From Methanomassiliicoccales archaeon (GTDB taxonomy: Archaea > Thermoplasmatota > Thermoplasmata > RBG-16-68-12 > SOIM01): a DNA stretch of 64,000 nt. Made by a program: the position numbers and the translations under genes. Location of the stretch: assembly GCA_004377185.1 (NCBI GenBank), contig SOIM01000058.1:67828-131827 (forward strand). The letters are read 5' to 3'. The notes below the pieces were generated by a model. It searched no databases, had not been told where the DNA came from, and worked only from the letters and a program-made list of their open reading frames with translations. How positions within the stretch are numbered: position 1 is the stretch's first letter; each line of letters starts with the position of its first letter. Of this stretch, positions 4,442 through 62,322 are shown one piece after another.

Positions 4442-4495
4442 GTTACCTCCCCTTCTCACCTTGCTGAAAGCGAAAGTTACGGATAATATTATCCT

Positions 4496-4723
4496 TCAAT
4501 CCTCAGATTTCTTTGGCCTTGTGTAGATGACCTTGATGGTCTCTTCATAACCCGCTATGCACTCGCGACATTCCTCGTCATTCTCTGTGTCAAAGGGTTC
4601 CAGTCGGACCTCAAATCCTAACGATTCGTACATTTCAACGGACTCGCTGAGCCTCGGTTCAGTAGCGGAGAACATTCTGGTCCAACCCTCTTTTTCCAGT
4701 TCTTCCTTCTTTGATTCGCTCAT
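4496..4723 (-). CDS. Small acidic hypothetical protein with a CxxC pair
   Basis: 78-aa ORF, 75 aa from ATG 4723. It lies in the same frame as the 832-aa oxidoreductase upstream, separated only by its TGA stop. It fills the gap before the OYE-like gene. No recognisable family. Confidence 0.4.
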   Translation of the reverse strand: MSESKKEELEKEGWTRMFSATEPRLSESVEMYESLGFEVRLEPFDTENDEECRECIAGYEETIKVIYTRPKKSED

Positions 4724-4732
4724 GCCTATCAC

Positions 4733-15400: not shown

Positions 15401-17546
15401 ACCTTGTGACCTCAGCAGAGCCAACAACAGATGTCTGGGATATGTTAGACTGCAAATCCCAACTGTCTATGAGCACAAAGAAGTCTCCGTCAAATACCGT
15501 GACCTCATAATAGCCCGTGGAGTTGGAGGTTGTCTGCATCATCCAGCCGTAGGTGCCGTTCAATACGACGATGTCAGCCATATCCACGGAAGACCCGCTG
15601 GTTGCATTATACACATATCCCCATATGGTCGCTGGCGGGAGGGACAGAAAGTCAGCAGCGAAGTAGAGACCTGTCATATGCATGTCCGAATCGAGGAAAA
15701 GAGGTCCCATCGGATCGAAAGACATCAAATTCATGAAGACGAAATATGGTCCGTCCGCTCCATGTCTGCTTATGTCTATCCCGCTGAATCTGAGAGGAAT
15801 GAATGTGGCCCCAGCACTGAGATTCGCAATCTGCTGAGCCCCGGTAATCGGCATGAAAAATGGGTCCAACAGCGTAGCAACGACCGCATACCACCCGGGA
15901 TCGTTCACAAGAATCGAAGCATTTACGACCAAGAAATCATACACACCGTCCGGAGGAGCGTCTATGTCCAGGGCGTAGTCACTGTGGGGAGGATTGAAAA
16001 GCGCTGCAGGCAAGTCGAAATCTGTTGCGAGATATAGCTGGGTCAGGAAGGAGTCCGAATCAAGTGTGAGAAACATCATATCAAGGACATCGAGGAACAC
16101 AAGATAGGGGCCATCAATTCCAGACATAGAGATGTCCGAGCCCGGGAACAGAAGATCCACCGTCTGTGAACCGATATCCAGCCAGGTTGAGTTCGTTGCT
16201 GACGTGATGAAGAACATTCCAGTTTGGTCGTACAAGTATCCCCAGACAGTATAACTGCCGGGAGCGTCCACGGTGAGGTTTGCGTTCACCACCAGGAAAT
16301 TGTAGTCCGAATCACCATCAGTGTCGAGCCCATAGTCCCAGTGCGGTGGAGAGAATGCACATGGAGGATTGGGCTCAAAATCGGTGAACAGATATGCGGC
16401 TGTGACGTGCGTGTCGCTGTCAAGCAGATTCCAGAACTCATCATAGAGATTGAGGTCTATCAGGTAGGGTCCATCCACTCCAAAATTGAAAATCTGGAAA
16501 CCGTAGAACTTCAAATCAACTGTCTGGATTCCCGTTGAAAGATAAGTCACATTCTGGGTCCAACCGAAGGCGGTGGACCCGTCCACACTGTAATTCCCTG
16601 CAGTGGTCACATCTACGCTGGCAGTGACAACGAGGAATTCATACAGAAGATTCCCGTTTGTATCCCAGCCCCAATCACTATGTGGCGGCAAGAAAGTCGC
16701 AGGTGGGAATGCGAAATCGGTTGCCAAATACGGGTTCGTGAAGTAGGTGTCGTTGTGCAAGAAATTGAACATACTGTCATACAAGTAAAGGTCAACCCTG
16801 TACGGTCCATCAATACCAGAACCGCGAATAAGATACCCCAAGAAACCGATGTCGACGGTGTGCGTGCCAACGGTCAGGAAGGTGAAATTGACCTGGAAAT
16901 CTATGAATGTCATTCCAGTAGCGTCAAGAAGCGTCGCATCGAGCTCATAGTTGCCTGAGACGTTGACGGTCACCTCCGCACCTACGACGAGAAGGTCCCA
17001 CAGCATATCCCCATTGTTATCGATGCCCTGATCCGAGTGGGGAGGGGTGAAGTAGGCGTCCGGACCTTCGAAATCGGTCGCCAAATAGGCGCTTGTGGTA
17101 TGAGTGTTAAGATCCAAAGGCATGAATAAATCGTCAAACAACACCACCTCGACTTGATAGGGGCCGTCATAGCCAGATTGACGGATTATGAACCCAGGGA
17201 ACTTCACATTTATCCATTGGGCTCCAAGACCTAGATCGGCCATTGCAAATTGGCTGTCTATCATGATCATTCCCGAGTTGTCATAGAGGTTACCTATGAG
17301 ATAGAAGATTCCAGCGCCTGTTACATCAACGCTCGCATTCACAATGAGTTCGTCATAGAGGCCGTTTGGCGGCATATCAGTATCCACGGCCTGGTCCGAG
17401 TGGGGAGGCGTAAAACTCCCGCTCGAGGCGCCCACGATGCCAGCAATCCCAGAGAACACACCGAAGACCATGAATGCCGCTATCGTCAGCACAAACATTC
17501 TTCCGGCTCGCTCACTAGAGGGTTTTGAACAGGTTGCATCTTTCAT
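12498..17546 (-). CDS. Giant cell-surface protein: signal peptide, about 7 tandem ~95-aa beta-sandwich repeats, further Ig-like/PKD-like domains, C-terminal TM helix and acidic Pro/Glu-rich tail
   Basis: Start at M10 (ATG 17546) with GGAGGAAG SD; 1682 aa from this start (the track ORF from GTG 17573 is 1691 aa). Hydrophobic signal MFVLTIAAFMVFGVF. Recurring FTPPHSD...DGPY...LYD repeats. WANDTSDNW-type domains. Tail WWLLVLIIVIVVVVAVVGL then (AEEPTEAP)n. Many N-x-S/T sequons. Confidence 0.8.
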   Translation of the reverse strand: MKDATCSKPSSERAGRMFVLTIAAFMVFGVFSGIAGIVGASSGSFTPPHSDQAVDTDMPPNGLYDELIVNASVDVTGAGIFYLIGNLYDNSGMIMIDSQFAMADLGLGAQWINVKFPGFIIRQSGYDGPYQVEVVLFDDLFMPLDLNTHTTSAYLATDFEGPDAYFTPPHSDQGIDNNGDMLWDLLVVGAEVTVNVSGNYELDATLLDATGMTFIDFQVNFTFLTVGTHTVDIGFLGYLIRGSGIDGPYRVDLYLYDSMFNFLHNDTYFTNPYLATDFAFPPATFLPPHSDWGWDTNGNLLYEFLVVTASVDVTTAGNYSVDGSTAFGWTQNVTYLSTGIQTVDLKFYGFQIFNFGVDGPYLIDLNLYDEFWNLLDSDTHVTAAYLFTDFEPNPPCAFSPPHWDYGLDTDGDSDYNFLVVNANLTVDAPGSYTVWGYLYDQTGMFFITSATNSTWLDIGSQTVDLLFPGSDISMSGIDGPYLVFLDVLDMMFLTLDSDSFLTQLYLATDFDLPAALFNPPHSDYALDIDAPPDGVYDFLVVNASILVNDPGWYAVVATLLDPFFMPITGAQQIANLSAGATFIPLRFSGIDISRHGADGPYFVFMNLMSFDPMGPLFLDSDMHMTGLYFAADFLSLPPATIWGYVYNATSGSSVDMADIVVLNGTYGWMMQTTSNSTGYYEVTVFDGDFFVLIDSWDLQSNISQTSVVGSAEVTRSLELPVADLMNTTLVMTDWDNVVSDTRFEMGVDNQSMRFMIDMVVGNRDGFVNQTELDVFLFMSGGAAPPIFSTTIDQFYVDGIHYDLVPGTDSFIFDLLGSVVSPNPPSGLMVANFTSNTTIPVASTHRLEINTTYDTDAERNILNGLLPAGFNLWGYDPVVNVSISGIGTPNFVVDPLMDPDPFDTIDYVWVNLTAGQGAPDTNAPQVLNVRINGQMNPIYDLSNIPPVIYLNATIDDSGTGNLPIGGANYTIGVQDWATSTLMNPADGMFDSPTEDVTAVITPPVGTTIYCVYGQDIVPNYNTTGSCTSVTVLDDLAPQISNIEIDGGPSAVFLLSTLPATATLNATIDDTTTGSSVVWGANYTTPLVDFWPGIDMFPVDMSFDQPTENVTANILVPTSVGVFDYYVHAWDVDMNYNDSAPAVQIIVLDDIDPAVAGVTLNGQPTVSVMPDTSVFVNATVDDTGGRGSTAIQGANYTIDGDWLTSVPLQAADGAFDTFTEDVTSTPSFIDTTGWADADYEVCVYGWDDVPNYNSIGACAILNISSVDDKPPYVLSVLLNEDPISATVWPGTTVYLNATIDDNPALGSNIAGANYTIERDWLTTTPMFPLDGAFDGPSEDVNVTIYTSGMALGTYQVCVHGWDEVPNHNVSFTACVDLIIRAPPDTQSPTITDQKAEPDPQAPGEDVRISATVQDNVQVDEVWVNITDPDGEEVGNYSMRYDIGDDEYYYEVDFDIEGEYTFVIWANDTSDNWASASGGFDIRELTPPTIDVTVDPEKPKAGETVTFEATVDDASGVDRVRIEIVRVSDALIVLSNRSMDDLGGGVYGYEFSFDEAGDYDYKISARDENGNWNEVQGTITVAEKAAPSFLEEYWWLLVLIIVIVVVVAVVGLMLRRKPKVAEVPPAEEELPPPPEEPAEAPTEAPAEEPTEAPAEEPAEAPAEEETPPPPEEEPKGPEMLEDVEG
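12571..12666. repeat. 24-bp tandem coding repeat x4 (gcaggtgcttcggttggttcttcc) encoding the (AEEPTEAP)n tail of the giant surface protein
   Basis: Four head-to-tail 24-nt units read directly from the sequence, with 1-3 substitutions each. Confidence 0.8.
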
Positions 17547-17716
17547 CCACGCTTCCTCCAAACCTTTTCCCACGTTGTCAAATGCTTTATCTATTAAAAT
17601 CTTGGCTTCTCAATTCCCATTTGAATAACTGACCATTCTCGCATATCTCGCAGCGAAATCGCTTTTCCAAAACAATAAATATCGCTGTTGGCTTACGCCC
17701 GCATGGGAGGAGTGAT

Positions 17717-25893: not shown

Positions 25894-27561
25894 TCACTTC
25901 TGTCTTGGAACCCGGTAATATTCCTCCTCGGGAGGCTTCTTCCTGAGAACGAGATATAGAACCAGGGCGGTAAGGACCGCACCCACAATTGCCACAATTA
26001 TCAAAGCCAGAGTGACACCGGGGACACCTGGAAGTCCATCAGGGGGAGGATGAGTTCTCGCCACAGTCACCGGGCCACCACTGATTGCTGTGTGTGAACT
26101 GAAGTCATCGGAGATGACTGCTTTGATGTAATAGCTTCCTTCGTTAACCAAAGAGACGTTCCAGATGTAGTAGTCGCTGACGTCATCCTCACTGACCGTG
26201 ACCAATTCCGTAAGAAGGGAAGGCGAGCCGGCTGGATAGTAGTACAGTTGGATTGTCGCATCACTGTCCGGGTCAAAGTCCACCCATTCGATCCGGAACT
26301 CATGTTCCACTGTGTCATTGTCTCCATCTGGCTCCGCAACGAATATGGATGGTGGCACATCTGAGATCAGAACGGTGAAAATGTTGCTACCAGGAACCAC
26401 TGCCGCGATATTGGTGAATCCCTCTTTCCCAAACTCAAGGTCTGCAAGAACGAAGGACTCCGCCCAACCATCAATCGGTATCTCAATTCTATCGTAGGTT
26501 GAAGTTGCGTTGTTGTAGTACAGTATGGTCAATAATTGAGGTTCACCCCAGCTACTGCAGAGTATGTCCTTGAACCCGTCCAGATCCGCGTCCCCCACGA
26601 CGAGAGAGACCGAGTTGGTGTTGTTGATGGGATTGGATGTCTGGAAAGGAAAATTCCCCGTGCCGTCATTCTCAAGGACCCATACATCGCCGTCATCTTT
26701 GCAGAGCACCACGATATCTAGAGAAGAGTTTCCGGTGACATTCTCAAGATACACATCCCACGGCGATCTGCCAACGTTATAATCTCTGTGACTGGCAAAA
26801 ACGCCTGCTCCGTTGTTGAAGAGAACGGTTACGTTGTTATCGTCCCTGTTGGCTGTTACCACATCATTAAAGCCGTCACCATTCAAATCCGCCACGAAGA
26901 CGCTGTGGGGATCCGCGCCAACCGAGTAGTTGGTGGGGAGAGAGAAAGAGCCAGAACCATCGTTGAACAGAACGGAAACCGAATTGGATTCCCCTCCGTT
27001 CGCGGTTATGATGTCGATATCATTGTTGCCGTCCTCTCCCAGATCCGCAAGGAAGACGGCCGCTGGATCGTCACCCACGGGATACTGCTGGAAGGCTGAG
27101 AAGGACCCGTCCCCGTCGTTCAAGAGAACAGACACGTAGTCGAAATACTCGCTGGGGGGACCGACGGTATCTATCTCCACGCGGGAGACCGCCAGGTCAA
27201 TGTAACCGTCCCCATCGAGGTCCGCGGCGTCAATGCTCCTCGGCTCCTGGCCGACTGAATATGTCCATTTTACGTCCTCAAAGGTTCCATTGCCGTTGTT
27301 GAGTGCGACTGAGACCGAGCTAGCGTTCCTATTGACTGTTATCAGATCGAGATGTCCATTGCCGTTGAAATCGTCAGCCACAATGTCCCAAGGAGAGCGG
27401 CCCACTTCCACGTCGACTTGGGCGATGAACAAGTCACCCCTATCTGCAAACGAAGCGCTGGGAAGAAGCACAAAGCACACGCACAGGATTAGAACGAGTA
27501 AAGATGCCCTCTTTGATATCAGTGAAAGATGTTTTGCACACCTCTTGGCTGCCAATGTCAC
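25894..27561 (-). CDS. FG-GAP/VCBS-repeat beta-propeller surface protein with signal peptide, C-terminal TM anchor and short acidic tail
   Basis: Repeated DxNGDGxxD/FG-GAP-like units (ADFNGNGHLD, ADLDGDGYID, ADLNGDGFND, GDADLDGFKD). Signal LLVLILCVCFVLLPSASFA. C-terminus LALIIVAIVGAVLTALVLYLVLRKKPPEEE. Start is GTG 27561 or TTG 27555. Confidence 0.8.
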   Translation of the reverse strand: MTLAAKRCAKHLSLISKRASLLVLILCVCFVLLPSASFADRGDLFIAQVDVEVGRSPWDIVADDFNGNGHLDLITVNRNASSVSVALNNGNGTFEDVKWTYSVGQEPRSIDAADLDGDGYIDLAVSRVEIDTVGPPSEYFDYVSVLLNDGDGSFSAFQQYPVGDDPAAVFLADLGEDGNNDIDIITANGGESNSVSVLFNDGSGSFSLPTNYSVGADPHSVFVADLNGDGFNDVVTANRDDNNVTVLFNNGAGVFASHRDYNVGRSPWDVYLENVTGNSSLDIVVLCKDDGDVWVLENDGTGNFPFQTSNPINNTNSVSLVVGDADLDGFKDILCSSWGEPQLLTILYYNNATSTYDRIEIPIDGWAESFVLADLEFGKEGFTNIAAVVPGSNIFTVLISDVPPSIFVAEPDGDNDTVEHEFRIEWVDFDPDSDATIQLYYYPAGSPSLLTELVTVSEDDVSDYYIWNVSLVNEGSYYIKAVISDDFSSHTAISGGPVTVARTHPPPDGLPGVPGVTLALIIVAIVGAVLTALVLYLVLRKKPPEEEYYRVPRQK

Positions 27562-29478: not shown

Positions 29479-31584
29479 ATGCGAAGCAGACTAGATCCTA
29501 TCTTCAATCCGAAGTCCATTGCTATCATCGGCGCTTCCAGAAAGAAGGGCAAGATCGGGAGGGAACTACTTCACAACCTGATCAGGTACGAGTTCCAGGG
29601 GAAGCTCTTTCCGATAAACCCACACGCTGAGGAAGTGCATTCGATTCCTGCCTATCCTTCAATCTTGGACGTCCCAGATGAGGTTGACCTCGCTGTCATT
29701 ATCGTTCCCGCTGAGCATACGATAGAGGTGATGAAAGACTGCGGGAAGAAGGGGGTTCGGGGTGCCATAGTAATCACCGCAGGCTTCAAGGAAACGGGTG
29801 AGAAAGGTGCGCGTCTTGAGAACAAACTGCATGAGGTCTGCAAGAAATATGGAATCTCGATGATCGGCCCCAACTGCATGGGTGTCATAAACACGAACGA
29901 GAACGTGAAGATGGATGCCACCTTCGCTCCTTCCCTTCCACTAACTGGAAGGATTTCATTCATGTCCCAATCCGGTGCACTGGGTGCCGCCATTCTGGAT
30001 CATGCGGATAACATAAAAGTAGGCTTCGCCAAGTTCGTGAGCCTGGGAAACAAAACGGACGTTTCGGGTAACGATCTGCTGATGGCTTGGGAGGATGACA
30101 GTGACACTGACATTATTCTGATGTACATAGAGAGCTTCGGAAACCCAAGGAACTTCGTACGGATCGCGAGGGACGTGACCCGGAAGAAACCGATAATTGC
30201 CTTGAAATCGGGGCGGACGGAGGCAGGAGCTGCCGCGGCCGCAAGCCATACTGGAGCACTCGCAGGACTGGATGTTGCCACCGACGCGCTCTTCGAGCAG
30301 TGCGGGGTCATCAGGGTCGGCTCGATAGAAGAGCTCTTCGACATCGCGATTGCATTTGCAAATCAACCGCTTCCCAAGGGTAACAGGATCGCCATTCTCA
30401 CCAATGCCGGCGGACCAGCGATAATGACTGTGGATGCTCTCGTGGGCGCAGGACTGAAACTGTCAGAGTTCAGCGACAGAACGAAGAGAAAGCTCCGAGA
30501 GAACTTGCCCGAGGAGGCCAGTATCAAGAACCCGGTTGACATGATTGCCGCGGCCGGACCCAAAGAATACGAGATGGCGATGGAGGCCATTCTGGCAGAC
30601 AGACGAGTGGACGCATTGGTAACGATCTTCGTACCACCCATCGTGACCAAGGAGATCGAGATTGCCCACGCCATCGTGAAGGCAAGCAAGAAGTACAAGA
30701 AACCAGTCTTGTCATGTTTCCTGGGAAGGACTGAAGACTCTCCTGGCTTCGTCTACCTGACTGAGAACGATATTCCTTCATATCTTTTCCCTGAGAGTGC
30801 CGTGAAGTCCCTCTCGGCAATGGTCGCCTACCGCACGTACCTGGAAAGAGAGAAGGGGAAAGTGAGAAGCTACAAGGTCGATAGGAAAACCGCCAGGAAG
30901 GTATTCCGAAAAACGGCTCGCGAGAAGAGAACGTGGTTAAGAGAATTGGAAGCCTTTGATGTCCTGAGGTCCTACGGTCTTGAGGTCGTTGAAACGGAAG
31001 TCGGAAAGAACCTGGAAGAAGTGAAGGATTTTGCAAAGAAGATTGGTTATCCAGTCGTTCTGAAGGCTTGCGGGGAAGGAATCATACACAAGACGGAGAT
31101 TGGGGCGGTCGTGCTGAATATCGAGGATGAGGAGGAACTCATCAACAGCTTCAAACAAATGATATCCAACGTGAAGAGGGAGGGGTTCGAAGTGGACTGC
31201 TTCCTTGTGCAAGAGATGGTCAAGGGCGGAAAGGAGGTCATCCTGGGAATGAAATATGACGAACACTACGGACCCATCGTCATGTTCGGTACTGGAGGCA
31301 TCTATGTGGAATACCTGAAGGACGTGGCTTTCAGGGTAGCTCCCCTGACCGATGTTGATGCAACCAGGATGGTCAGATCCATAAGGTCGTACCCGCTTCT
31401 AGAAGGTGTGAGAGGGGAGGAACCTTCAGACGTTGAGAGCCTGATCGAGAGCATCCAGAGACTGTCACAGATGGCAGTTGAGTTCGAAGAAATCGGACAG
31501 ATGGACATAAACCCAATCATGTTGTTCGAGAAAGGGAAGGGCTACAAGATTGTGGACGTGAGAATCGCCATAAGAGAGACCTGA
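29479..31584 (+). CDS. ADP-forming acyl-/acetyl-CoA synthetase (NDP-forming, fused alpha-beta)
   Basis: 701 aa. N-terminal CoA-binding IAIIGAS, phospho-His region SQSGALG/GPNCMG, C-terminal ATP-grasp. No SD, possibly leaderless with a TATA-like ttgataaa about 28 bp upstream. Confidence 0.9.
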   Translation: MRSRLDPIFNPKSIAIIGASRKKGKIGRELLHNLIRYEFQGKLFPINPHAEEVHSIPAYPSILDVPDEVDLAVIIVPAEHTIEVMKDCGKKGVRGAIVITAGFKETGEKGARLENKLHEVCKKYGISMIGPNCMGVINTNENVKMDATFAPSLPLTGRISFMSQSGALGAAILDHADNIKVGFAKFVSLGNKTDVSGNDLLMAWEDDSDTDIILMYIESFGNPRNFVRIARDVTRKKPIIALKSGRTEAGAAAAASHTGALAGLDVATDALFEQCGVIRVGSIEELFDIAIAFANQPLPKGNRIAILTNAGGPAIMTVDALVGAGLKLSEFSDRTKRKLRENLPEEASIKNPVDMIAAAGPKEYEMAMEAILADRRVDALVTIFVPPIVTKEIEIAHAIVKASKKYKKPVLSCFLGRTEDSPGFVYLTENDIPSYLFPESAVKSLSAMVAYRTYLEREKGKVRSYKVDRKTARKVFRKTAREKRTWLRELEAFDVLRSYGLEVVETEVGKNLEEVKDFAKKIGYPVVLKACGEGIIHKTEIGAVVLNIEDEEELINSFKQMISNVKREGFEVDCFLVQEMVKGGKEVILGMKYDEHYGPIVMFGTGGIYVEYLKDVAFRVAPLTDVDATRMVRSIRSYPLLEGVRGEEPSDVESLIESIQRLSQMAVEFEEIGQMDINPIMLFEKGKGYKIVDVRIAIRET

Positions 31585-32795: not shown

Positions 32796-33065
32796 ATGGA
32801 AATCACCCTCAAATTTCTGAAGCCTTTGAATGATGTTGTCGGTCAGAACGAGTTGTCGGTTGAAGTGGAAAATGGTACGGTTGAGTCCCTGTTGGCGGAC
32901 CTGTTGAACGATCATCCGAAATTGGCAGAGGAGATACTTGACGAGAAGGGTGAGTTGGACTACAGGGTGAATGTGATACTCAACGACAAACCCCTGAACG
33001 ATCTGGACGTGAACCTGAACGATGGGGACCTTTTGACATTGTTCATACCAATAAGTGGTGGGTAG
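32796..33065 (+). CDS. MoaD/ThiS-family ubiquitin-like small protein (C-terminal GG) adjacent to AOR
   Basis: 89 aa ending ...LFIPISGG. Beta-grasp-like length. Sits immediately 5' of the AOR gene. Confidence 0.7.
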   Translation: MEITLKFLKPLNDVVGQNELSVEVENGTVESLLADLLNDHPKLAEEILDEKGELDYRVNVILNDKPLNDLDVNLNDGDLLTLFIPISGG

Positions 33066-33105
33066 ACCCCCGAGCTCTCGACGGTCAGAGGAGAGGAATC
33101 CAATC

Positions 33106-34944
33106 ATGCAGGAAAGGAAGCTTGCAGTTGTCGATCTTTCAAGAGGGAAGGTGACGACAAGAACCATTCCAAAATCCTGGCGAAAAGGTTTTCTCGGTGG
33201 GAGGGGCATCAATTCCTATTTGCTCTATAATCTGATAGAAAAGGGTACGGACCCATTCTCCCCAAGGAATGCTCTTGTGCTTGGCGTTGGTCTTCTGGGG
33301 GGCACGCTGGCGCCATCATCATGCAGATTCAACGCATCCGCCCTTTCTCCCGAGACGGGCCTGCTTGGTGATTCGAACTGCGGAGGGTTCTTTGGACCCG
33401 AACTCAGGTATGCTGGCTTTGATCATCTCATTTTGAGAGGGAGGGCGAAGAGACCCTCGTACGTGAACATACAGGATGGAGAGATCGAAATCCGGGACGG
33501 GAGAGAGTACTGGGGGATGGATACATACGATGTGCAGAAGGCGTTGAGGAAAGACCTCGGAGATGTCGAATCGCTTGTCTGCGGTGTTGCTGGAGAGAAC
33601 AAGGTTCGGTTCGCATGCCTGCGCAATGGTGTGAAGAACGCGGCTGGAAGATGTGGCTTGGGAGCGGTGATGGGGTCAAAGAACGTCAAGGCCGTGGTGG
33701 CATCCGGGACGGACGGAATAAAGGTCGAACATCCGCAGGAGATGTTGGAACTGGTACAGGACATCAAGAACTACCTCATGGACTCCAAGATAACCCCCAT
33801 CCTGGGCAGTATGGGAACCCCACTTCTTTACGAGGTGAGCAATGCCATAGGTGCCATAAGAACCAAGAACAGCCAGCTGAACGCCTGGTCCGATTCCCTG
33901 AATGCGGAGGAATTGGAGAAATACGTCGAGAAGATGATTTCATGCTCCTCATGCTTCATGCACTGCAGGCACAGGAACACGTTCAATGGAGAAGGTCCCG
34001 AATACACGGCGGTCGGATTACTTGGCGCAAACTTGGGGTTGGAGGACTACCCTGACGTCATCAAGCTGAACAACACTTGCAACGAACTGGGATTGGACAT
34101 ATCATCTTCAGGATCAATACTCAGTTGGGCCTTCGAGCTGTACGAAAGAGGGATAATCGACAAGAAGTTGACCGGGCAGGAGTTGAGGTTCGGTGATTCT
34201 GAGCTTGCAGATGAACTGCTTCACAAGATCGCTGGGAGAGAAGGTTTCGGAGACGTATTGGCTGAGAGCAGTAGGGCGGTGAAGAAATTCGGACCCGAGT
34301 CCAAGGACTATCTCATTGCCGTCAAGGGCCTTCCACAGAGCGATCCGCACGACGTGAGATATATCAAGGCGTTCGCGCTGGGAATAGCGACCGCCAGCAG
34401 AGGAGCTGACCACCTCAGAAGCAGGCCCACCCTGGAGATATTCTTCAGATTGCCATTGGAGGTGAAAGAGAAGATATACGGAAAAGGAATCACCGCTGAC
34501 CCAACCTCGTACGAAGGTAAAGAAAGAGCGGTCTGTTTCTCGGACAACATCTTCGCAACCATAGATTCTGTAGGTATCTGCAAGTTCATCTGTCACGGTT
34601 TCAACAGCCCCCATTTCCTGGGTTATGAGCATTTCTCAAAGCTTTTGCATGCGGTAACAGGGATGCGATACCGAGAGAAGGAACTGGAGAACATCGGCAA
34701 GAGGATAATCGATACCGAGAGGATGTTCAACTTCAAGCACGGAATGACAGCGAAGGACGATACCCTCCCGAAAAGATATTTCGATGACCCAATGACAATG
34801 AAGGTCTCGAAGGGACACAAAATCGACAGAAAGAGCTTCCAGAAGATGAAGAAACGGTACTACAAGCTCAGGAATTGGGACGAGAAGGGGAGGGTGAAGA
34901 AGCAACGGGTCAAAGAAATCGAATCCTACGGGGGGCTGCAGTGA
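33106..34944 (+). CDS. aor: Tungsten-type aldehyde:ferredoxin oxidoreductase (AOR family)
   Basis: Start ATG 33106 with GGAGAGGAA SD. 612 aa with AOR N-terminal domain (LAVVDLSRGKV...GGRG) and pterin/4Fe-4S-binding region (CSSCFMHCRHR). Confidence 0.9.
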   Translation: MQERKLAVVDLSRGKVTTRTIPKSWRKGFLGGRGINSYLLYNLIEKGTDPFSPRNALVLGVGLLGGTLAPSSCRFNASALSPETGLLGDSNCGGFFGPELRYAGFDHLILRGRAKRPSYVNIQDGEIEIRDGREYWGMDTYDVQKALRKDLGDVESLVCGVAGENKVRFACLRNGVKNAAGRCGLGAVMGSKNVKAVVASGTDGIKVEHPQEMLELVQDIKNYLMDSKITPILGSMGTPLLYEVSNAIGAIRTKNSQLNAWSDSLNAEELEKYVEKMISCSSCFMHCRHRNTFNGEGPEYTAVGLLGANLGLEDYPDVIKLNNTCNELGLDISSSGSILSWAFELYERGIIDKKLTGQELRFGDSELADELLHKIAGREGFGDVLAESSRAVKKFGPESKDYLIAVKGLPQSDPHDVRYIKAFALGIATASRGADHLRSRPTLEIFFRLPLEVKEKIYGKGITADPTSYEGKERAVCFSDNIFATIDSVGICKFICHGFNSPHFLGYEHFSKLLHAVTGMRYREKELENIGKRIIDTERMFNFKHGMTAKDDTLPKRYFDDPMTMKVSKGHKIDRKSFQKMKKRYYKLRNWDEKGRVKKQRVKEIESYGGLQ

Positions 34945-55166: not shown

Positions 55167-56387
55167 TTATTGCTCTCTTGGTTCTTCTTCCTCTTTCGAC
55201 TCTTCCTCTGGCAACTCTTCCTCTGGCAACTCTTCCTCTGGCAACTCTTCCTCTGGAAGTCTACCTCTCCCTCGTGCGGCTGCCGCAACAGCTGCGATGA
55301 TGATTACTATTATGATTATGGCAATGATTATCCAGAGCCAGGGGAGCTCTTCGGTCGGTTCTCCGTCAGCAGCAGACACTGTGATCTCATGAGGTGAGGT
55401 TGTGGGATTCGTTGCGGGATGAGTTGCGGTATTAGTACCATCCGTTGCAGAGATGTAGTACTCGACACCATCCGTGGTCACATCATCTGACGGGATGGTT
55501 CTAGTGTAAGTGTCATCTGTTCTGGTCATCGTGACAGCCGTGAAGTCAGCGTCACCTGTCTTTCGGTAGTACAGAGTTGCACTTTCCATGCCCAAACCAT
55601 CGTCTGTGATCGTGGCAGTAATGGTGATTGACTGTTCAGCTGTCGCGGTTGTCACAGCCGTGTGAGTTATCGTTGGAGCATCTGTATCTTCAGAAATCGC
55701 AATCGTGGAGTTAACAGTCCGATTGTCATTGTCGTTTGTATCATTTGCCCAGATAAAGTAAGTTACATCACCAGCAGAAGATTGCGCAGGGATGGTATAG
55801 TTGTAATTGCCTGCGACCAAGACCATCGACTCATTAGCGGTGATGCCGGCCACATCTGTGTAGGTCAAATTCACTTCATTGACTGCTACGTTGTCTGACA
55901 CTTGAGCAGAAATTGTCATTTCTCGACCTACCCAAGCAGCAACTACAGGCGTATGAGTTATCTCAGGAGATTCTGTATCTTCTGAGATTACGATCTCAAA
56001 GTCAATGGTTCTGTTCCAATTGTCGCTTGTATCTGTATCATTTGCCGAAATATTGTAGAAGACACTGCCAGCAGAAGATTGTGCAGGGATTATAAAGCTA
56101 TAGTTGTCGTCCCAGTTAGCCATCGTCACATTGTCCCATGCACCGCTGACTTCTGTGTAGTTCAACCACACTTCATACACGTCATCAACATCCGTCACTT
56201 TGGCAGTAATGTTGATGTCGATACCTACTGTTCCGTCAGTTACTGGGGTATGATCTATCTCGGGACCAAAGGCATCCGCCATCACCGTTGGCATATTCAC
56301 AAGCAAGGCACCAAAGATCATAGCTGTAACAGCAATGATTGATGCCCATCGCACACTATGAGCCGAGAATTGTCGTTTGGCTTTCAT
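55167..56387 (-). CDS. Cell-surface protein with three ~95-aa HTP/ANDT-signature Ig-like repeats, C-terminal TM anchor and (EELPE)n acidic tail
   Basis: Start ATG 56387 (GGAGG SD) giving signal MKAKRQFSAHSVRWASIIAVTAMIFGALLV. Repeats each contain HTPV...NY(N/S)(Y/F)(T/I)IPAQSSAG.V.Y.I.AND(T). Tail WLWIIIAIIIIVIIIAAVAAAARGRGRLPEEELPEEELPEEELPEEE. Confidence 0.75.
   Translation of the reverse strand: MKAKRQFSAHSVRWASIIAVTAMIFGALLVNMPTVMADAFGPEIDHTPVTDGTVGIDINITAKVTDVDDVYEVWLNYTEVSGAWDNVTMANWDDNYSFIIPAQSSAGSVFYNISANDTDTSDNWNRTIDFEIVISEDTESPEITHTPVVAAWVGREMTISAQVSDNVAVNEVNLTYTDVAGITANESMVLVAGNYNYTIPAQSSAGDVTYFIWANDTNDNDNRTVNSTIAISEDTDAPTITHTAVTTATAEQSITITATITDDGLGMESATLYYRKTGDADFTAVTMTRTDDTYTRTIPSDDVTTDGVEYYISATDGTNTATHPATNPTTSPHEITVSAADGEPTEELPWLWIIIAIIIIVIIIAAVAAAARGRGRLPEEELPEEELPEEELPEEESKEEEEPREQ
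55201..55260. repeat. 15-bp tandem coding repeat x4 (actcttcctctggca) encoding the (LPEEE)n tail
   Basis: Four perfect or near-perfect 15-nt units read from the sequence. Confidence 0.8.
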
Positions 56388-56523
56388 ACGTTTTCCTCCA
56401 AACCTATTGACATTTCCGCCGTTGCATTCTTGCAGTCCTATTAATGTCTTTCGGTCAAGCGTTTGCATTCAAGATATAACACAGTTGTACTGGATATAAT
56501 GCTGTTATAATATATTGGAAATG

Positions 56524-57045
56524 TCAAAAGTGCCAGGATTTGTTCCACTTATATTCATCCGCTCCTTCGAAAGTCAGTTCGTTCTCGCGTTTGGAAAGGT
56601 TCCTGCAGCTTCTTGGCACGAGCAATCTCTCGCCGTTCAATTCCAGAATTACAAACAAATTATCCCTGACTATTGGCATCATCCGCGTAGATCTCTCAGG
56701 TTCCACAAACACTCTGATGTCCTTGTGGCGGGGGCGGATTGCGATAAGGCCCACTCCTTCCTTCCGAAACCAGTATCTGTTCCGGTAGGCTTGGGAAGCA
56801 TGTCCGAATGGCATTGCCACGAAACAGTAATCCGCACCGAGCTGATACGCCACTGCTTGTCTCAAGGCTTCCCTCCAGTTCCTTATCTTTATCTCCACCG
56901 CCACGACCTCGTCCCCCTTCACCGCGACCAGGTCCACCCATCGGGTAATCATTCTGACCTCTGCGTAGGCCCGGTAGCCATGGCCTCGGAAGAAGGTTTT
57001 CAGACCCGCCTTCAAATCTTCCTCGATGACATTGCAGCTTCCCAT
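56524..57045 (-). CDS. PD-(D/E)xK nuclease-fold protein (Hjc/restriction-endonuclease-like core) with an unknown C-terminal half
   Basis: VDLVAVKGDEVVAVEIKIRNW matches the D...(D/E)xK core preceded by an E-containing helix (EEDLKAGL). 173 aa. Confidence 0.5.
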   Translation of the reverse strand: MGSCNVIEEDLKAGLKTFFRGHGYRAYAEVRMITRWVDLVAVKGDEVVAVEIKIRNWREALRQAVAYQLGADYCFVAMPFGHASQAYRNRYWFRKEGVGLIAIRPRHKDIRVFVEPERSTRMMPIVRDNLFVILELNGERLLVPRSCRNLSKRENELTFEGADEYKWNKSWHF

Positions 57046-57211: not shown

Positions 57212-60160
57212 ATGGAATCGAGAAGAGTTAACAGCTCAATCCTCTTTGCAATCGTCCTTGTGTTGATAGTTCAGGTTGGGGCAAGCAGTTTGGAACCAAG
57301 TGAAGAGAACCCAATTGAGAGGACTGCCATTGTTCTCACCAGAACCTTGACGTTTGATATTGAACTTTCGGAGCTTGAACTGTTGAAGATGGGCAACTAT
57401 GACTACATTACTTCGGAAGGTTTGCGACGCTTCACGCGCCCTGGGGAGCCACTACTTCCAATGAAAACGATCGTCACTGAGTTCGACAAGAATGCGGATA
57501 TCCTTGATGTTGCCCTGGCGTACGAAGAGCGTGTTCCAATAGAGGGGACGTTCGACATAGCGCCCACACCAAAGCCTGTGACCTGGGACAGTTGGGGAAT
57601 CGGTGAGCCCGAGAAGAATCCTGAAGTCTACGCGCTTGATGACTATTTCCCTGGAGAGGTTTTTTCATACAGGATCGGAGAAGACAATTACAAGAAGTAT
57701 CTCTACGTCCACATCTACCCGGTCCAATACATCCCTAGCAGGGGGAGAATCGAAATAATCACCGATATCGCTCTGGACATCACCTACCAGAATTCTTCGG
57801 ATATGGAACCGCTGGCAGATGACCTGAGTGCAGAATGTTTAATCATCACCCCTCAAAGCCTCTATCCAGAAGCGAAACAGCTTGCCGATTTCCATGAGGC
57901 CTCTCTCGGCGTGCCAACTTCGGTTGTGAACACCACATGGATCGAAGTTAACTACCTTGAGGCTCCGGACCCGCCCTACATTGGGTATTCGGACAGTGGA
58001 CTAAACGGTTGGAATCAGATCGTTGGGTACGACTACAGCCTGGCCAAGAAGACGGTGAACTACCTGGATGACACGAGTGCGCATCCGAATCTCGAGTATG
58101 TGCTCCTGTATGGAAACGCCCAGATGGTTCCTCCGAGTTTCTACTGGTACGATTCCTGGGTGGGAGGATTTATGCCCTATCAGGGTTGGATACCTACGGA
58201 CTTCTTCTACAGCTCCCCCGACTATGACCTCACGCCTGACTATGCGGTTGGCAGACTGCCTGTGGACGGAAGCACGAGAGCCCAAACCCTGAATCAGAAG
58301 ATCGTGAACTGGTATGCGAATCTCTTGCCCAGTTGGTTCAACAAAGCCGTGGTTGCGGGTGGAACGCCCTTCAACACTCCATTCTACGTGGGGGAACTCA
58401 TAACCCAAGATGCTGTCAACAAGGGATACTTTGACGGGTTCGACATAACGAAGATGTTCCTTTCGGACTGGAAGTTCGACCGCGTGAATGTGCTGAACGC
58501 GCTGTCGGGCGGATATGGAGTCATGTATGAAATCGGTCACGGGTTGGGTGACGTGATGATTGTGAACGACAGCGGCATGCCCGGGGAGATGATCACTACC
58601 ACGGACATCATGAGCCTGTCCCCGAATAGTAACGTACCAGTTGTTGTTTCCATCGCCTGCATCAACGGTGCTTTTGACAATACCATCATGGCAAACAAAC
58701 CGTTCACGTCATCAAATTCCATAGGAGAAAGCCTGCTCTTCTCCCCTGCTGGAGCTATAGCCTACGTCGGTAGTTCCAGGGTGAGCACAGGTATGTCTAT
58801 CGGGATTCTTGAGGAGGGAGAAGTGAAGATAACTGGCGAGACTACCATGGTCAGCTTGCTCACGAGTTTCTGGAGAGCGCGCTACGAGGGTGCTGGAACC
58901 CTGGGATCCACGTCCATGGATGCTATGACCTACTTCTCTTCTGGCGAAGATATGGGCAGTATTGAGAACAAGAGGGCCCTTTTCGAATACGTTCTCCTGG
59001 GCAACCCTGTCCTCCCGTTCACGCATCCACAACAGGACAAATACAGCGTGCCCAGAACAGAAATCCTGGATGTGAGGGGTTACGAATACCGCGGTAATCC
59101 CATGTTGATTGAGGGTCAGGTCCCTGTCGTTGGGTTGAACAGACCGAATGCGGTGGATGTGGTCGCGGATTCCCCGAGCGTAAATTTCAAGATTGTCGAT
59201 TCGGAGGCCGTCGTAACACTGGAATACGGTTCGAACACAACAACGAACAACCAGACACGGTATGACTTCACACCCTCAAGGACTTCCTTGCTTTTGCTGA
59301 GGGCGGAGGGAGAGGACGGCAAGGAAGGCTGGCAGTACATGGTCTCGAAGTTCGTACCCAACTTTCCCAAAGCCCCGGTCCTGAGGCTTGCAAGACTGAG
59401 CGGACCGAATGATGAAGATGTTCTGATAGACTGGTACAAGTCTACTGATGAGGGCGATCCGCGCGGCACACTGAACTACGAAGTGTACCGGTCTTTGAAC
59501 TCATTATCCGGTCCATATAGCAAGATCGCAGACGTCCCAGCTACTGGACAATCAAACTACAACTACATAGATGCAGGTCGAGGAGATGGCGATACAGACA
59601 ATTTCTACTATGTGCAATCGGTGAACTTCACAGCACAGAGCGCAAGGAGCTACTACGCAGCGAAGAAAGCAGGGTTGTTCTCAGCAGGCTGGTGGTTGAT
59701 ATCGCTACCACTCGTACAGTATGACAAGACCACAAGTGCCGTCTTCAGGACACTGGACTTCGAAACGGTTGTGACTTATGTGGCGTCCGACCCCATTGAT
59801 CCGTGGAAGAGGTATGACTCCTTCAAACCCTACGCGGACCTGGATTATGTGGATCACACAATGGGCCTTTGGGTCAATGTCTCCTCGTCCGACTATCTAA
59901 CGATAGCTGGATTGGTGCCGAAAAGCACTCCGATCGTTTTGCGTCCGGGGTGGAATCTGGTTGGTTATCCCACTTTTGATGGGAGAAATGTGACTACCGA
60001 GTTCGCAGGGATTAGCTATGACAGAATCGAATTCTACGAGCCCACATCGCCCCCCTATTTGCTGCATTGCTTGTTACCGACCGAGGATATGTTTTCAGGC
60101 GGCGGATACTGGATCAAGGTGAGCTCTCAGCAAGTCTGGACGGTATACAACCCAGCTTAG
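57212..60160 (+). CDS. Secreted gingipain-like cysteine peptidase (family C25, clan CD) with Fn3-like and C-terminal sorting/anchor-like domains
   Basis: ATG 57212 with signal peptide ILFAIVLVLIVQVGASS. YVLLYGNAQMVPPSFYW, PDYAVGRLPVDG, catalytic dyad context EIGHGLGD and VVVSIACINGAF. 982 aa from ATG 57212 (991-aa track ORF). Confidence 0.8.
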   Translation: MESRRVNSSILFAIVLVLIVQVGASSLEPSEENPIERTAIVLTRTLTFDIELSELELLKMGNYDYITSEGLRRFTRPGEPLLPMKTIVTEFDKNADILDVALAYEERVPIEGTFDIAPTPKPVTWDSWGIGEPEKNPEVYALDDYFPGEVFSYRIGEDNYKKYLYVHIYPVQYIPSRGRIEIITDIALDITYQNSSDMEPLADDLSAECLIITPQSLYPEAKQLADFHEASLGVPTSVVNTTWIEVNYLEAPDPPYIGYSDSGLNGWNQIVGYDYSLAKKTVNYLDDTSAHPNLEYVLLYGNAQMVPPSFYWYDSWVGGFMPYQGWIPTDFFYSSPDYDLTPDYAVGRLPVDGSTRAQTLNQKIVNWYANLLPSWFNKAVVAGGTPFNTPFYVGELITQDAVNKGYFDGFDITKMFLSDWKFDRVNVLNALSGGYGVMYEIGHGLGDVMIVNDSGMPGEMITTTDIMSLSPNSNVPVVVSIACINGAFDNTIMANKPFTSSNSIGESLLFSPAGAIAYVGSSRVSTGMSIGILEEGEVKITGETTMVSLLTSFWRARYEGAGTLGSTSMDAMTYFSSGEDMGSIENKRALFEYVLLGNPVLPFTHPQQDKYSVPRTEILDVRGYEYRGNPMLIEGQVPVVGLNRPNAVDVVADSPSVNFKIVDSEAVVTLEYGSNTTTNNQTRYDFTPSRTSLLLLRAEGEDGKEGWQYMVSKFVPNFPKAPVLRLARLSGPNDEDVLIDWYKSTDEGDPRGTLNYEVYRSLNSLSGPYSKIADVPATGQSNYNYIDAGRGDGDTDNFYYVQSVNFTAQSARSYYAAKKAGLFSAGWWLISLPLVQYDKTTSAVFRTLDFETVVTYVASDPIDPWKRYDSFKPYADLDYVDHTMGLWVNVSSSDYLTIAGLVPKSTPIVLRPGWNLVGYPTFDGRNVTTEFAGISYDRIEFYEPTSPPYLLHCLLPTEDMFSGGGYWIKVSSQQVWTVYNPA

Positions 60161-62322
60161 TTCGTCAGAACCCAATCGTAGTCTTCTGACACGTGAATCC
60201 AATAACCTTCGCCAGCGGTCATCAGGTCGCCTTCACCCAACCTTGTCAGATACCAAGGAGAATCCATCGGTTCGAAACTCTCGATCGTCTGGTAGTGCAC
60301 CGCCAGAGTGTCAGAGACTGTTCTGTCGATGAAAGATGGATAGCCCACGAAGTTCCATCCAGTTACAAGATGTATTGTGGTTTCGTGGGGGACCAACCCG
60401 GCAACGGTGAAATGGCTCTCGGAGATGACCTCCACCCACAGCGCCATCGTATCGTCGACATACTCAAGATCCGAGTATGGTTTCCTGGTATCGAAAGTCC
60501 TCCAGTTGTGCCTCTTACCAGCCATCGCATCATAGTAGATGATTCTCACGTAGGAAACGGTCTGGAAGACTGTAGTGACATGATTATCTGACACCTGCAA
60601 AGGCATCGACATTAGCACCATTCCAGAGTCCATATGTTTGGCGAACTTGGATGCCTGCTGCTCTGCCAACGTCTCTTGAGCCGCGTCATCCACCGCACCT
60701 ACACAGTAGAAGTATGTGTTCGGGTCTCCATGACCCGCGGCAGTATCAACCCAGCTGTCCGAACTAGGAGAAACGGTCGCGAAGAGGGTGTATCCCAGGC
60801 AATCTGGATCATATACTGTTCCTCTGTAGATGTTGTACGCATCCACGTCATTGTCCCCAGCCCCATCATCACCTGACAGCTCCCAGCTCAGCTCGACATC
60901 CTCATTCATCGGACCGGAAAGAACTGCATCGATCAGACGAGGTGGAGCAGGATAACCATCAATGATTTCCGCATAAGTGGTGTCGTTGTCACTCGCTCCG
61001 TCATTGTCAGTGACTTTGAGTGTCACATCATATATTCCGGCGGCCAAGTACGTATGAGACACAGTCACTCCATATGCCTTTCCCGAACCATCCCCGAAGT
61101 CCCACTCATACTCAACTATGCTCCCATCGGGGTCGTACGAGCCTTTGCCGTCGAAATCTATCGTCCAACCCTTCTTACCGAAGTAAGGACCACCGGCATC
61201 TGCCACAGGAGGTTCGTTATATTCCCCGCATCCTCCAATCGGATGCATGAACGGGTACTGATCAATGCTGTTATTGTCCACGTAGTATGGCGTGTCCCCT
61301 ATGCCATCACCATCCGAATCAGTTCCGTTATAGTCGTCCCAGTAGTTGCCTTCAGAACCGTCGTCGAAGTAGTTAGCCCAGTTGTCGGCTGCGTTGTCGA
61401 AATTGGATATGAAATCGTTGTGATGAACGTTGATGTTATAGGAGTTGTAGAGATTCAGACCCACACCATTTTCGGATAGTACGTTGCACCCCACTGTGTC
61501 GTACATTGCGCCCTGCAGAGAGATACCCGAGCCGGTACCGCCCGGATTCTGCAGTCCATTTCCAAATATTGTGTTGTTCCAGTAGGTGCTATAGGAGACC
61601 TTTGTCCCCCAGTCGCTTCCGTAGGAAACACCGACAAACATATTGTTGAAGATTCTGGAATTCTGTATCCACACATTGGAGTAGTTGCCAATGATGCCTT
61701 TGTTGTTGTATGAAATTTCACTGTCATCAATAATGCTACCCGAAGAGGTGCCAAGGTCTAATCCAACGTCATTGGACATAATCTGACTGCGATAAAGATA
61801 GACTTGAGCATCATAGTCCAGAGCCATACCGCAGTCCCTGTTATTCTGGAATACACTGTTTTCGATGCTGATATTTCGCCTATAGGCTGTGAGTGTCACT
61901 CCACACAAAGCGTTGGACACCATGGTGTGCTTCATACTGCCAAATCCCGTCCTCTCTATGACTATTCCCTTCCAATAATGTCCAGTTGGGTCCGGGGGTT
62001 GACCGTTGGAGAAAACCACCATTCCATACTCTGACCCTTTCGTCAAAAGAAAACCACTTACGTTGAAGTAGTACGAGCCGTTGAACAGCACGCTCACTCC
62101 AGCTTCGATAGTAAGAGTGGCGTTGAAGTCAACGAAGGTATCTCCTACGATCCAATAGGGGCTGCCATTCGCCGTCCAGGTAGTGTCCGTAGTAATATGT
62201 CCACTCACTTCCGTCCCGGCCACAACGTTCTGGTTCAAATGCAGAACCATTCCGAACATCGAAGCGAGTACGGTAAGAACAGCGATGCTCACAATCTCTA
62301 TCTTTCTATCTGCCCTGCCCAT
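60157..62322 (-). CDS. Secreted right-handed parallel beta-helix (pectate-lyase/NosD-like) repeat protein with PKD-like, Fn3-like and the same C-terminal domain as the C25 peptidase
   Basis: Signal/TM IEIVSIAVLTVLASMFGMVL. Repeated beta-helix rungs (NNRDCGMALDY..., SNDVGLDLG..., YNNKGIIGN..., NNMFVGVSYG..., NGVGLNLYNSYNINVHHNDF). PKD-like WDFGDGS. C-terminal 150 aa alignable to the peptidase C-terminus. Confidence 0.75.
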   Translation of the reverse strand: MGRADRKIEIVSIAVLTVLASMFGMVLHLNQNVVAGTEVSGHITTDTTWTANGSPYWIVGDTFVDFNATLTIEAGVSVLFNGSYYFNVSGFLLTKGSEYGMVVFSNGQPPDPTGHYWKGIVIERTGFGSMKHTMVSNALCGVTLTAYRRNISIENSVFQNNRDCGMALDYDAQVYLYRSQIMSNDVGLDLGTSSGSIIDDSEISYNNKGIIGNYSNVWIQNSRIFNNMFVGVSYGSDWGTKVSYSTYWNNTIFGNGLQNPGGTGSGISLQGAMYDTVGCNVLSENGVGLNLYNSYNINVHHNDFISNFDNAADNWANYFDDGSEGNYWDDYNGTDSDGDGIGDTPYYVDNNSIDQYPFMHPIGGCGEYNEPPVADAGGPYFGKKGWTIDFDGKGSYDPDGSIVEYEWDFGDGSGKAYGVTVSHTYLAAGIYDVTLKVTDNDGASDNDTTYAEIIDGYPAPPRLIDAVLSGPMNEDVELSWELSGDDGAGDNDVDAYNIYRGTVYDPDCLGYTLFATVSPSSDSWVDTAAGHGDPNTYFYCVGAVDDAAQETLAEQQASKFAKHMDSGMVLMSMPLQVSDNHVTTVFQTVSYVRIIYYDAMAGKRHNWRTFDTRKPYSDLEYVDDTMALWVEVISESHFTVAGLVPHETTIHLVTGWNFVGYPSFIDRTVSDTLAVHYQTIESFEPMDSPWYLTRLGEGDLMTAGEGYWIHVSEDYDWVLTN

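Follow-up and report, generated by a model that had tools for sequence, protein, structure and literature searches.

An unnamed C-terminal module shared by two convergent exoprotein genes of a Thermoplasmata archaeon, with a possible role in cell-surface retention

In Bacteroidota's secretion system of type IX (T9SS), many unrelated Sec-exported proteins, C25 peptidases included, carry a folded beta domain at their extreme C-terminus, which is processed by PorU/PorV. Archaeal C-terminal tags common to many surface proteins, such as those of the PGF-CTERM/archaeosortase type, take another form, i.e., a short motif followed by a transmembrane (TM) helix and a basic tail. The SLH, GW and similar non-covalent anchor repeats of Gram-positive bacteria are terminal units of ~55–80 amino acids (aa) that hold diverse exoproteins, cohesin scaffoldins included, on the cell's own envelope, and dockerin and PPC are C-terminal accessory modules found on secreted hydrolases. 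Here, we analyse a stretch of 64,000 nucleotides (hereafter the window) from a contig of a Methanomassiliicoccales archaeon (SOIM01000058.1), in which two convergent open reading frames (ORFs), ORF A for a secreted C25 peptidase and ORF B for a secreted beta-helix protein, end in the same module. A first, sequence-only reading of the window had proposed that this shared C-terminal domain (CTD) is a signal for secretion, sorting or cell-surface attachment, analogous to Por CTD, PGF-CTERM or S-layer homology domains. That two unrelated exoproteins share a C-terminal module without a family name is real and robust, and it is no two-gene curiosity; a putative role of this module in sorting or attachment is the interpretation best supported by the data.

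The two proteins are joined by a single strong BLASTP segment, which runs over residues 693–989 of ORF A and 417–721 of ORF B (35% identity over 311 aa, E=1e-42), the rest of the comparison being noise. This segment contains both parts of the alignment described in the sequence-only reading, i.e., the C-termini, of which the last 168 residues are 42% identical (the coordinates and the motifs quoted at the time were correct), and the Fn3-like segments that precede them. No third copy of the module was found in the window, either by tblastn or with hidden Markov models (HMMs). The segment of ~95 aa upstream of the CTD is a divergent Fn3-like domain: among PDB sequences, a profile of 16 such segments matched Fn3 domains only (E=1.3e-4 to 3.4e-4), namely those of contactin-4, of 3mpc (“Fn3-like protein”) and of chitinase A1, and in the AlphaFold2 (AF2) model of ORF B it forms a seven-stranded sandwich (strands E21–E111, pLDDT mostly >90). 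Pfam fn3 itself matched 1 of the 16 segments, below threshold (E=0.014). Altogether, the shared module of ~280 aa is a divergent Fn3-like domain fused without linker to an all-beta CTD of ~165 aa. The AF2 models give the CTD, with high confidence, as a fold of its own (pLDDT 95.4 and pTM 0.88 for that of ORF A), and the 280-aa model of ORF B, which spans the Fn3-like domain and the CTD, reaches a pLDDT of 91.0 and a pTM of 0.86. Because the junction between the two domains is modelled with a pLDDT of 94–97, and because the conserved “KF.r.L” stretch is a strand of the CTD in the ORF B model, the Fn3-like domain and the CTD appear to form one rigid piece, devoid of a flexible linker.

The CTD itself is a tandem duplication of a unit of ~80 aa. 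Unit 1 and unit 2 are related with an hhalign probability of 99.1% (E=1e-18), and the HMM of either unit also matches the other one, in ORF A as well as in ORF B. The unit consensus is roughly L..GWNL(I/V)(S/G).P...(short helix)...Y......W..Y......L..M..G.GYWI.V....W.V, and several Trp, Tyr and Gly residues of the CTD are nearly invariant. The domain is acidic (median isoelectric point, pI, of 4.56), as are the passengers to which it is fused. N-X-S/T sequons recur inside it, with at least one in 83% of the CTDs and two alignment columns bearing a sequon in 31–34% of the sequences; together with the lack of a linker at the Fn3–CTD junction, these recurrent sequons suggest that the CTD is retained in the mature protein.

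The sequence-only reading had not recognised a named family in this domain, and the family is indeed unnamed in Pfam and NCBIfam, just as its fold is without solved relative. Neither Pfam-A (models up to 2025) nor NCBIfam 20 gave a match over the CTD at E≤1, in scans that took in ORFs A and B, the isolated CTDs, eight distant members and the variants with a TM tail (see below). Likewise, the CTD profile retrieved no PDB sequence, and Foldseek retrieved no PDB structure at E≤1e-3 (TM-score of at most 0.28). The only fold relative of the CTD that was found comes from the predicted viral structures of BFVD. This entry, A0A8D9C8P8, belongs to an uncultured marine phage, is 587 aa long and is annotated as “putative hemin binding protein” (TMq 0.68, E=1.7e-3, 14% identity). 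A scan of viral contigs recovered no CTD relative. In their source records, the homologues bear generic annotations (hypothetical, NosD, beta-helix, lamin-tail or Ig-like domain protein), and full-text searching of the literature did not find a description of the domain. As the CTD exceeds 11,000 clusters at 50% identity and has neither a match in Pfam or NCBIfam nor a solved structural relative, it deserves a family model.

The module occurs beyond ORFs A and B. Scored against 1.84 billion cluster representatives (clusters at 50% identity), a profile of 23 sequences matched 29,215 of them at E≤1e-3, 11,524 at E≤1e-10 and 2,831 at E≤1e-30, while scanning a set with one genome for each GTDB species returned 256 confirmed stretches, the best 80 of which were kept and yielded 78 loci. 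All 78 of these best loci lie in metagenome-assembled genomes (MAGs) titled Thermoplasmata, Methanomassiliicoccales, Thermoplasmatota or “Methanobacteriota” archaeon; host taxonomy is here that of the record titles, and the top lists are biased toward Thermoplasmata, Thermoplasmata-like sequences having served to build both the profile and the scan pattern. A single MAG holds up to 7 CTD ORFs (97 ORFs counted by assembly); with no more than the best 80 stretches retained, this figure is a lower bound. Named database matches belong to Thermoplasmata or Euryarchaeota MAGs, to which one Chloroflexi protein must be added. As for bacterial relatives, a Cloacimonadota PKD protein of 3,424 aa (P0022) has five internal copies of the unit and a C-terminal dockerin. 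To judge from these occurrences, the ~80-aa unit is a widespread extracellular module, and what characterises Thermoplasmata is its two-unit form, placed at the end of the protein.

In archaeal proteins, the CTD is nearly always terminal. Its end lies at most three residues from the stop in about 90 of the 97 ORFs. Among the best database matches, 135 of 144 and 110 of 114 have no more than eight residues after the domain (median of one). The host proteins range from ~330 to >2,200 aa. Most of them are apparently exported, a signal-like hydrophobic N-terminal segment being present in 61 of the 69 complete cargo ORFs (on hydrophobicity only). The earlier claim of a C-terminal domain common to functionally unrelated exoproteins is borne out by 57 cargo proteins, which include 90 different Pfam families: NosD/Beta_helix (17 proteins), fn3 (7), CARDB (6), PKD (5), Peptidase_M28, Peptidase_M20 and LTD (3 each), FG-GAP, Peptidase_C25, GH18 and Amidase_6 (2 each), M14 and Amidase_3 (1 each), the remaining families being beta-propellers and others, with a GH130-like protein among the hydrolases. 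Three of the 97 ORFs (L022, L059 and L074), all coding for giant beta-helix/DUF11/Big_5 proteins, combine the CTD with a TM anchor. In these, the CTD is followed by a low-complexity linker of ~55 aa, a TM helix (e.g., SGGLTLFALAMLLAMVCLAIRRYRRY) and a basic tail, so that it is membrane-proximal, as the last folded domain before the linker and the TM helix; the NCBIfam CTERM models did not match this tail. In a few others (L042b, L073 and L077), the CTD is followed by further domains.

None of the known systems accommodates the domain as a member, even though each shares something with it, and the memberships evoked by the sequence-only reading (Por CTD, PGF-CTERM, SLH) fail: the CTD matched these systems neither by HMM nor by fold. 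The resemblance to T9SS lies in the position of a folded beta domain on many unrelated exported proteins, with dozens of cargos in a genome. The T9SS CTD is reported to be a single Ig-like beta-sandwich of 70–100 aa with seven (3+4) strands (PMC11285876), in contrast to the ~165 aa and two duplicated units observed here. Neither the type A (PF18962/TIGR04183) nor the type B (TIGR04131) T9SS models matched ORFs A and B or their isolated CTDs at E≤1. T9SS hosts have an outer membrane and the components PorK/L/M/N, SprA and PorU/V; the hosts here are archaea by their record titles. In the 64 kb of genome covered, nothing like a PorU/PorV machinery turned up, and the CTD bears no mark of cleavage. 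ORF A was considered as a candidate PorU, the T9SS sortase, and rejected, as its match to NF033707, confined to short stretches, reached 40.1 bits where the cutoff is 420 bits. Signals of the PGF-CTERM type share with our module the status of an archaeal C-terminal tag common to many surface proteins, but the CTD is globular and has no hydrophobic helix, and no NCBIfam CTERM model matched it. With dockerin and PPC modules, the similarity is one of placement on secreted hydrolases, reinforced by the co-occurrence of CTD relatives with cohesin and dockerin; size and fold differ, no Dockerin_1 or PPC HMM matched the CTD, and no cohesin-like partner was identified in Thermoplasmata. The SLH/GW type of anchoring is the analogy that we propose as a working model for what the CTD may do. 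There is no sequence or fold relationship between the two, however: the Pfam models for SLH, LysM, GW, CWB and dockerin had no match at E≤1 in the C-terminal 270 aa of ORFs A and B, nor any in eight other members. In addition, the CTD is acidic, and its ligand is a putative one. To our knowledge, the Thermoplasmata hosts have neither peptidoglycan nor a secondary cell-wall polymer.

Our preferred explanation, which we hold tentatively and at slightly less than an even chance, is that the CTD is a non-covalent cell-envelope retention module standing in for a TM anchor. Each protein would be exported by the Sec pathway thanks to its N-terminal signal peptide, and would consist of a variable passenger (peptidase, glycosidase, amidase, beta-helix, PKD, CARDB or adhesin-like propeller), a rigid Fn3-like spacer and, at the protein end, the two tandem units of the all-beta CTD. 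The latter would bind a component of the cell's own envelope non-covalently and keep the protein on the cell, the candidate partner being a surface glycoprotein or glycan layer, or else a membrane-anchored protein. In doing so, the CTD would replace the C-terminal TM anchor used by other surface proteins of the same organism. In uncultured Thermoplasmata, the whole module might then serve one class of exported proteins as their common “foot”, a generalisation that we likewise hold a little short of even. What the data establish is the domain with its duplication, its distribution, its terminal place, its varied cargo and its want of a TM segment; export, retention on the cell and the partner bound are inferred. 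Retention is favoured because the CTD and the TM anchor are nearly mutually exclusive, because the CTD is membrane-proximal in the rare proteins that have both, because the Fn3-like stalk is rigid, and because proteins made of a signal peptide, a cohesin and a CTD have the layout of an anchoring scaffoldin. In the window itself, three predicted surface proteins have a C-terminal TM helix and, behind it, a charged tail rich in Pro and Glu (e.g., (EELP)n or APAEEPTE repeats), while ORF A (...GGGYWIKVSSQQVWTVYNPA) and ORF B (...GEGYWIHVSEDYDWVLTN) end without a hydrophobic helix, which places two classes of exoproteins side by side, TM-anchored and CTD-bearing.

A census of the signal-bearing proteins without internal TM helix in our loci also speaks for retention, with 56 that have a CTD, 12 a C-terminal TM helix and only 7 neither; it is biased, however, since a CTD was the criterion by which the loci had been chosen. 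Several observations weigh against retention. The bacterial relatives (P0022 from Cloacimonadota and P0028) carry the unit internally, in five or more copies, within giant PKD/DUF11 proteins, as would suit a module for binding or spacing in general. Binding simply by charge is unlikely because the CTD is as acidic as its passengers, and we rejected it as unsupported. The N-terminal segment of ORF B could be an uncleaved signal anchor instead of a signal peptide; if such N-terminal anchors stay uncleaved, the CTD would become the distal tip of the protein rather than its foot. Finally, the hosts are uncultured and the envelope partner is a putative one.

These multi-copy bacterial relatives, one of them with a dockerin, speak for another possibility, which we consider rather unlikely, though the most serious of the alternatives, and one that the sequence-only reading had set against its own proposal: the CTD would be a lectin- or carbohydrate-binding module (CBM)-like domain that tethers hydrolases and adhesin-like proteins to substrates outside the producer, be they detrital particles, glycans or other cells, with no part in sorting or self-attachment. 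A tandem duplication of a small beta-unit with nearly invariant Trp, Tyr and Gly would suit a binding module of this kind, as would the many hydrolases among the cargos (C25, M28, M14, M20, GH18, GH130-like and amidases) and the fact that neighbour clustering found no dedicated machinery. Nevertheless, CBMs do not usually occur as a strictly terminal single copy, the state of the CTD in over 90% of the archaeal proteins, many cargos are non-enzymatic, the CTD of the TM-anchored variants sits next to the membrane, and no known CBM or lectin matched the CTD, either by HMM or by fold. The membrane-proximal position in these rare variants also counts in favour of a self-association module, an unlikely reading in our eyes, in which the proteins would co-assemble into an envelope layer by CTD–CTD contacts, perhaps nucleated by the TM-anchored giants. 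The pseudo-symmetry of the two-unit domain and the many paralogues per genome agree with such an assembly, and cultured Thermoplasmatales have a disordered glycoprotein layer and no S-layer (PMC12448462); on the other side, CTD oligomerisation is putative and the TM-anchored form occurs in just 3 of the 97 ORFs. A bolder version, to which we give similarly little credence, makes the CTD an assembly element of an undescribed archaeal envelope system, i.e., a modular coat held together by CTD–CTD or CTD–receptor contacts and nucleated by the TM-anchored giants. If it were true, dozens of different exoproteins per cell would stand on one foot (Fn3-like domain plus double-unit CTD), and the coat would replace the S-layer in wall-less benthic Thermoplasmata and keep extracellular peptidases cell-bound.

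More doubtful still is a C-terminal secretion or sorting signal in the strict sense, recognised by a dedicated machinery and removed or modified by a protease or transpeptidase, for which the C25 peptidase class itself could provide the processing enzyme. The extreme C-terminal position on unrelated cargos, dozens of them per genome, speaks for such a signal, and ORF A belongs to C25, the family that includes PorU (its NCBIfam PorU match is weak, 40 bits for a cutoff of 420). However, the CTD has no HMM or fold similarity to T9SS CTDs, the Fn3–CTD junction (pLDDT 94–97) shows neither a flexible linker nor a conserved cleavage motif, and the recurrent N-glycosylation sequons suggest that the domain stays in the mature protein. 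In some proteins, moreover, the CTD is followed by a TM anchor or by additional domains, C25 peptidases are just 2 of the 57 cargos, and archaea of this group are not known to have an outer membrane through which proteins must pass. Nor was any co-located machinery found: when 1,214 ORFs neighbouring the CTD genes of the 78 loci were clustered, no family occurred in more than seven loci, and those recurring beside CTD genes look like synteny. Co-occurring sortase-like genes, which the sequence-only reading had envisaged, did not appear as recurrent neighbours in the 78 loci, and neither a sortase nor an archaeosortase candidate was seen among the window proteins scanned. Of the original proposal, which is borne out in part, attachment stands as the best-supported element, and a secretion or sorting signal with a machinery of its own is putative. 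Lastly, the adjacency and convergence of ORFs A and B might evoke a recent local duplication, or a gene conversion between neighbours, devoid of wider meaning. We regard this as virtually impossible and rejected it: the two CTDs are only 42% identical, whereas ORF B shares 87% identity in the CTD with its orthologue L006, which lies in a different genome (CP070767.1). No other CTD exceeds 45% identity with that of ORF A, the cluster counts attest to thousands of further members, and the genome scan adds to them. As far as sequence identities can tell, the module has evidently evolved together with its passengers for a long time.

The features of the two genes and of their surroundings are collected in Table 1. 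ORF A reads, in order, as a signal-like N-terminus, a propeptide, a catalytic domain, the Fn3-like domain and the CTD. The near-full-length PF01364 match and a C25 propeptide (Propeptide_C25, aa 74–206, E=8.3e-5, 22.2 bits for a cutoff of 22 in Pfam) mark it as a bona fide C25 peptidase. In ORF B, NosD (E=7.6e-14) and Beta_helix (E=3e-11) were found besides a single PKD domain; the VVAG motif at its predicted cleavage site is kept in orthologues, and the L006 orthologue has the identical architecture. When ORF B was looked up by exact match in public assemblies, no entry came back. As stated in the sequence-only reading, the two genes end within 4 bp of each other on opposite strands: their reading frames overlap by 4 bp (60157–60160, T-TA-G), the stop codon of ORF A being TAG at 60158–60160 and that of ORF B TAA at 60157–59 on the minus strand, which leaves no intergenic room for separate terminators.

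Table 1. Coordinates of ORFs A and B, of their domains and of other features of the window.
Feature	Position	Strand	Basis
ORF A, secreted C25 (gingipain-family) peptidase, 991 aa	57185..60160	+	ORF list, Pfam
ORF A predicted signal peptide, MESRRVNSSILFAIVLVLIVQVGA	57212..57283	+	start codon and cleavage site inferred; hydrophobicity only
ORF A Peptidase_C25 catalytic domain, aa 219-610	57839..59014	+	PF01364 E=1.7e-46, profile positions 2-372/374
ORF A Fn3-like domain, ~aa 727-822	59363..59650	+	alignment with ORF B segment; profile vs PDB Fn3
ORF A CTD, 168 aa, all-beta	59654..60157	+	AF2; unit 1 ~59678-59923, unit 2 ~59924-60151 (unit HMMs)
ORF B, secreted beta-helix (NosD-like) + PKD protein, 721 aa, Fn3-like + CTD end	60157..62322	-	ORF list, Pfam
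ORF B predicted signal peptide, aa 1-35, cleavage between ...NQNVVA and G	62218..62322	-	inferred from sequence
ORF B right-handed beta-helix / NosD-like region, aa 78-348	61279..62091	-	Pfam, NCBIfam
ORF B PKD domain, aa 369-449	60976..61218	-	Pfam PKD_4 E=4e-24
ORF B Fn3-like domain, aa 462-552, seven strands	60667..60939	-	AF2, profile matches to PDB Fn3
ORF B CTD, aa 556-721	60160..60657	-	AF2, unit HMMs; unit 1 ~60385-60639, unit 2 ~60160-60381
Predicted surface protein, 433 aa, C-terminal TM helix + charged tail	55170-56468	-	
Predicted surface protein, 555 aa, FG-GAP repeats, C-terminal TM helix + charged tail	25897-27561	-	
Predicted surface protein, 1691 aa, C-terminal TM helix + charged tail	12501-17573	-	
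Aldehyde:ferredoxin oxidoreductase	33055-34944	+	
ADP-forming acyl-CoA synthetase	29479-31584	+	
Large flavin/FeS oxidoreductases	2468-7231	-	

Across the loci, CTD genes often adjoin one another, in tandem or convergently as in the window, and their cargo pairs differ. Such adjacent genes were seen in L007, L021, L037, L043, L047, L049, L052, L054, L056, L061 and L067, with pairs such as a CARDB protein and a protein of unknown type, or an FG-GAP and a GH130-like protein. This adjacency hints at a local expansion or at a co-regulation of exoprotein genes. Just upstream of ORF A, a 173-aa ORF (56527–57045, minus strand) has no Pfam match; ORFs resembling it are present in 6 of the 78 CTD loci, where synteny with ORF B orthologues probably accounts for them, and the same probably holds for the ETF and alanyl-tRNA-related genes that recur near CTD genes. 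Rfam and tRNA scans of the window were empty. By its other genes, among them the oxidoreductases and the acyl-CoA synthetase of Table 1, the window looks like that of an anaerobic fermenter of peptides or amino acids. Minimal proteins composed of a signal peptide, a cohesin and a CTD are recorded as P0232 and P0233 and at L079 (4179–5210). P0233 is flanked by a subtilase/cohesin protein and by a subtilase/Kelch protein of 3,824 aa, a neighbourhood that suggests a cohesin-based surface protease assembly, probably in a bacterial host.

In benthic Thermoplasmata (MBG-D/Thermoprofundales), extracellular C25, M28 and M14 peptidases are reported to be abundant and expressed, and these uncultured archaea are credited with the degradation of detrital protein in sediments by means of these enzymes (PMC6461988). 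ORF A is of the same C25 class, whichever order the window belongs to; in that study, peptidases are sorted by catalytic family and signal peptide, and a shared C-terminal module is not described. Whether such peptidases are cell-bound or diffusing decides who profits from the hydrolysis, which matters for models of carbon turnover in sediments. As a module recognisable in sequence and present on a large share of the exoproteome, the CTD offers a practical marker by which metagenomes can be searched for these proteins, as well as a defined object for binding and structural experiments. Beyond this, it is a candidate for a new anchoring principle in archaea that live without a cell wall.

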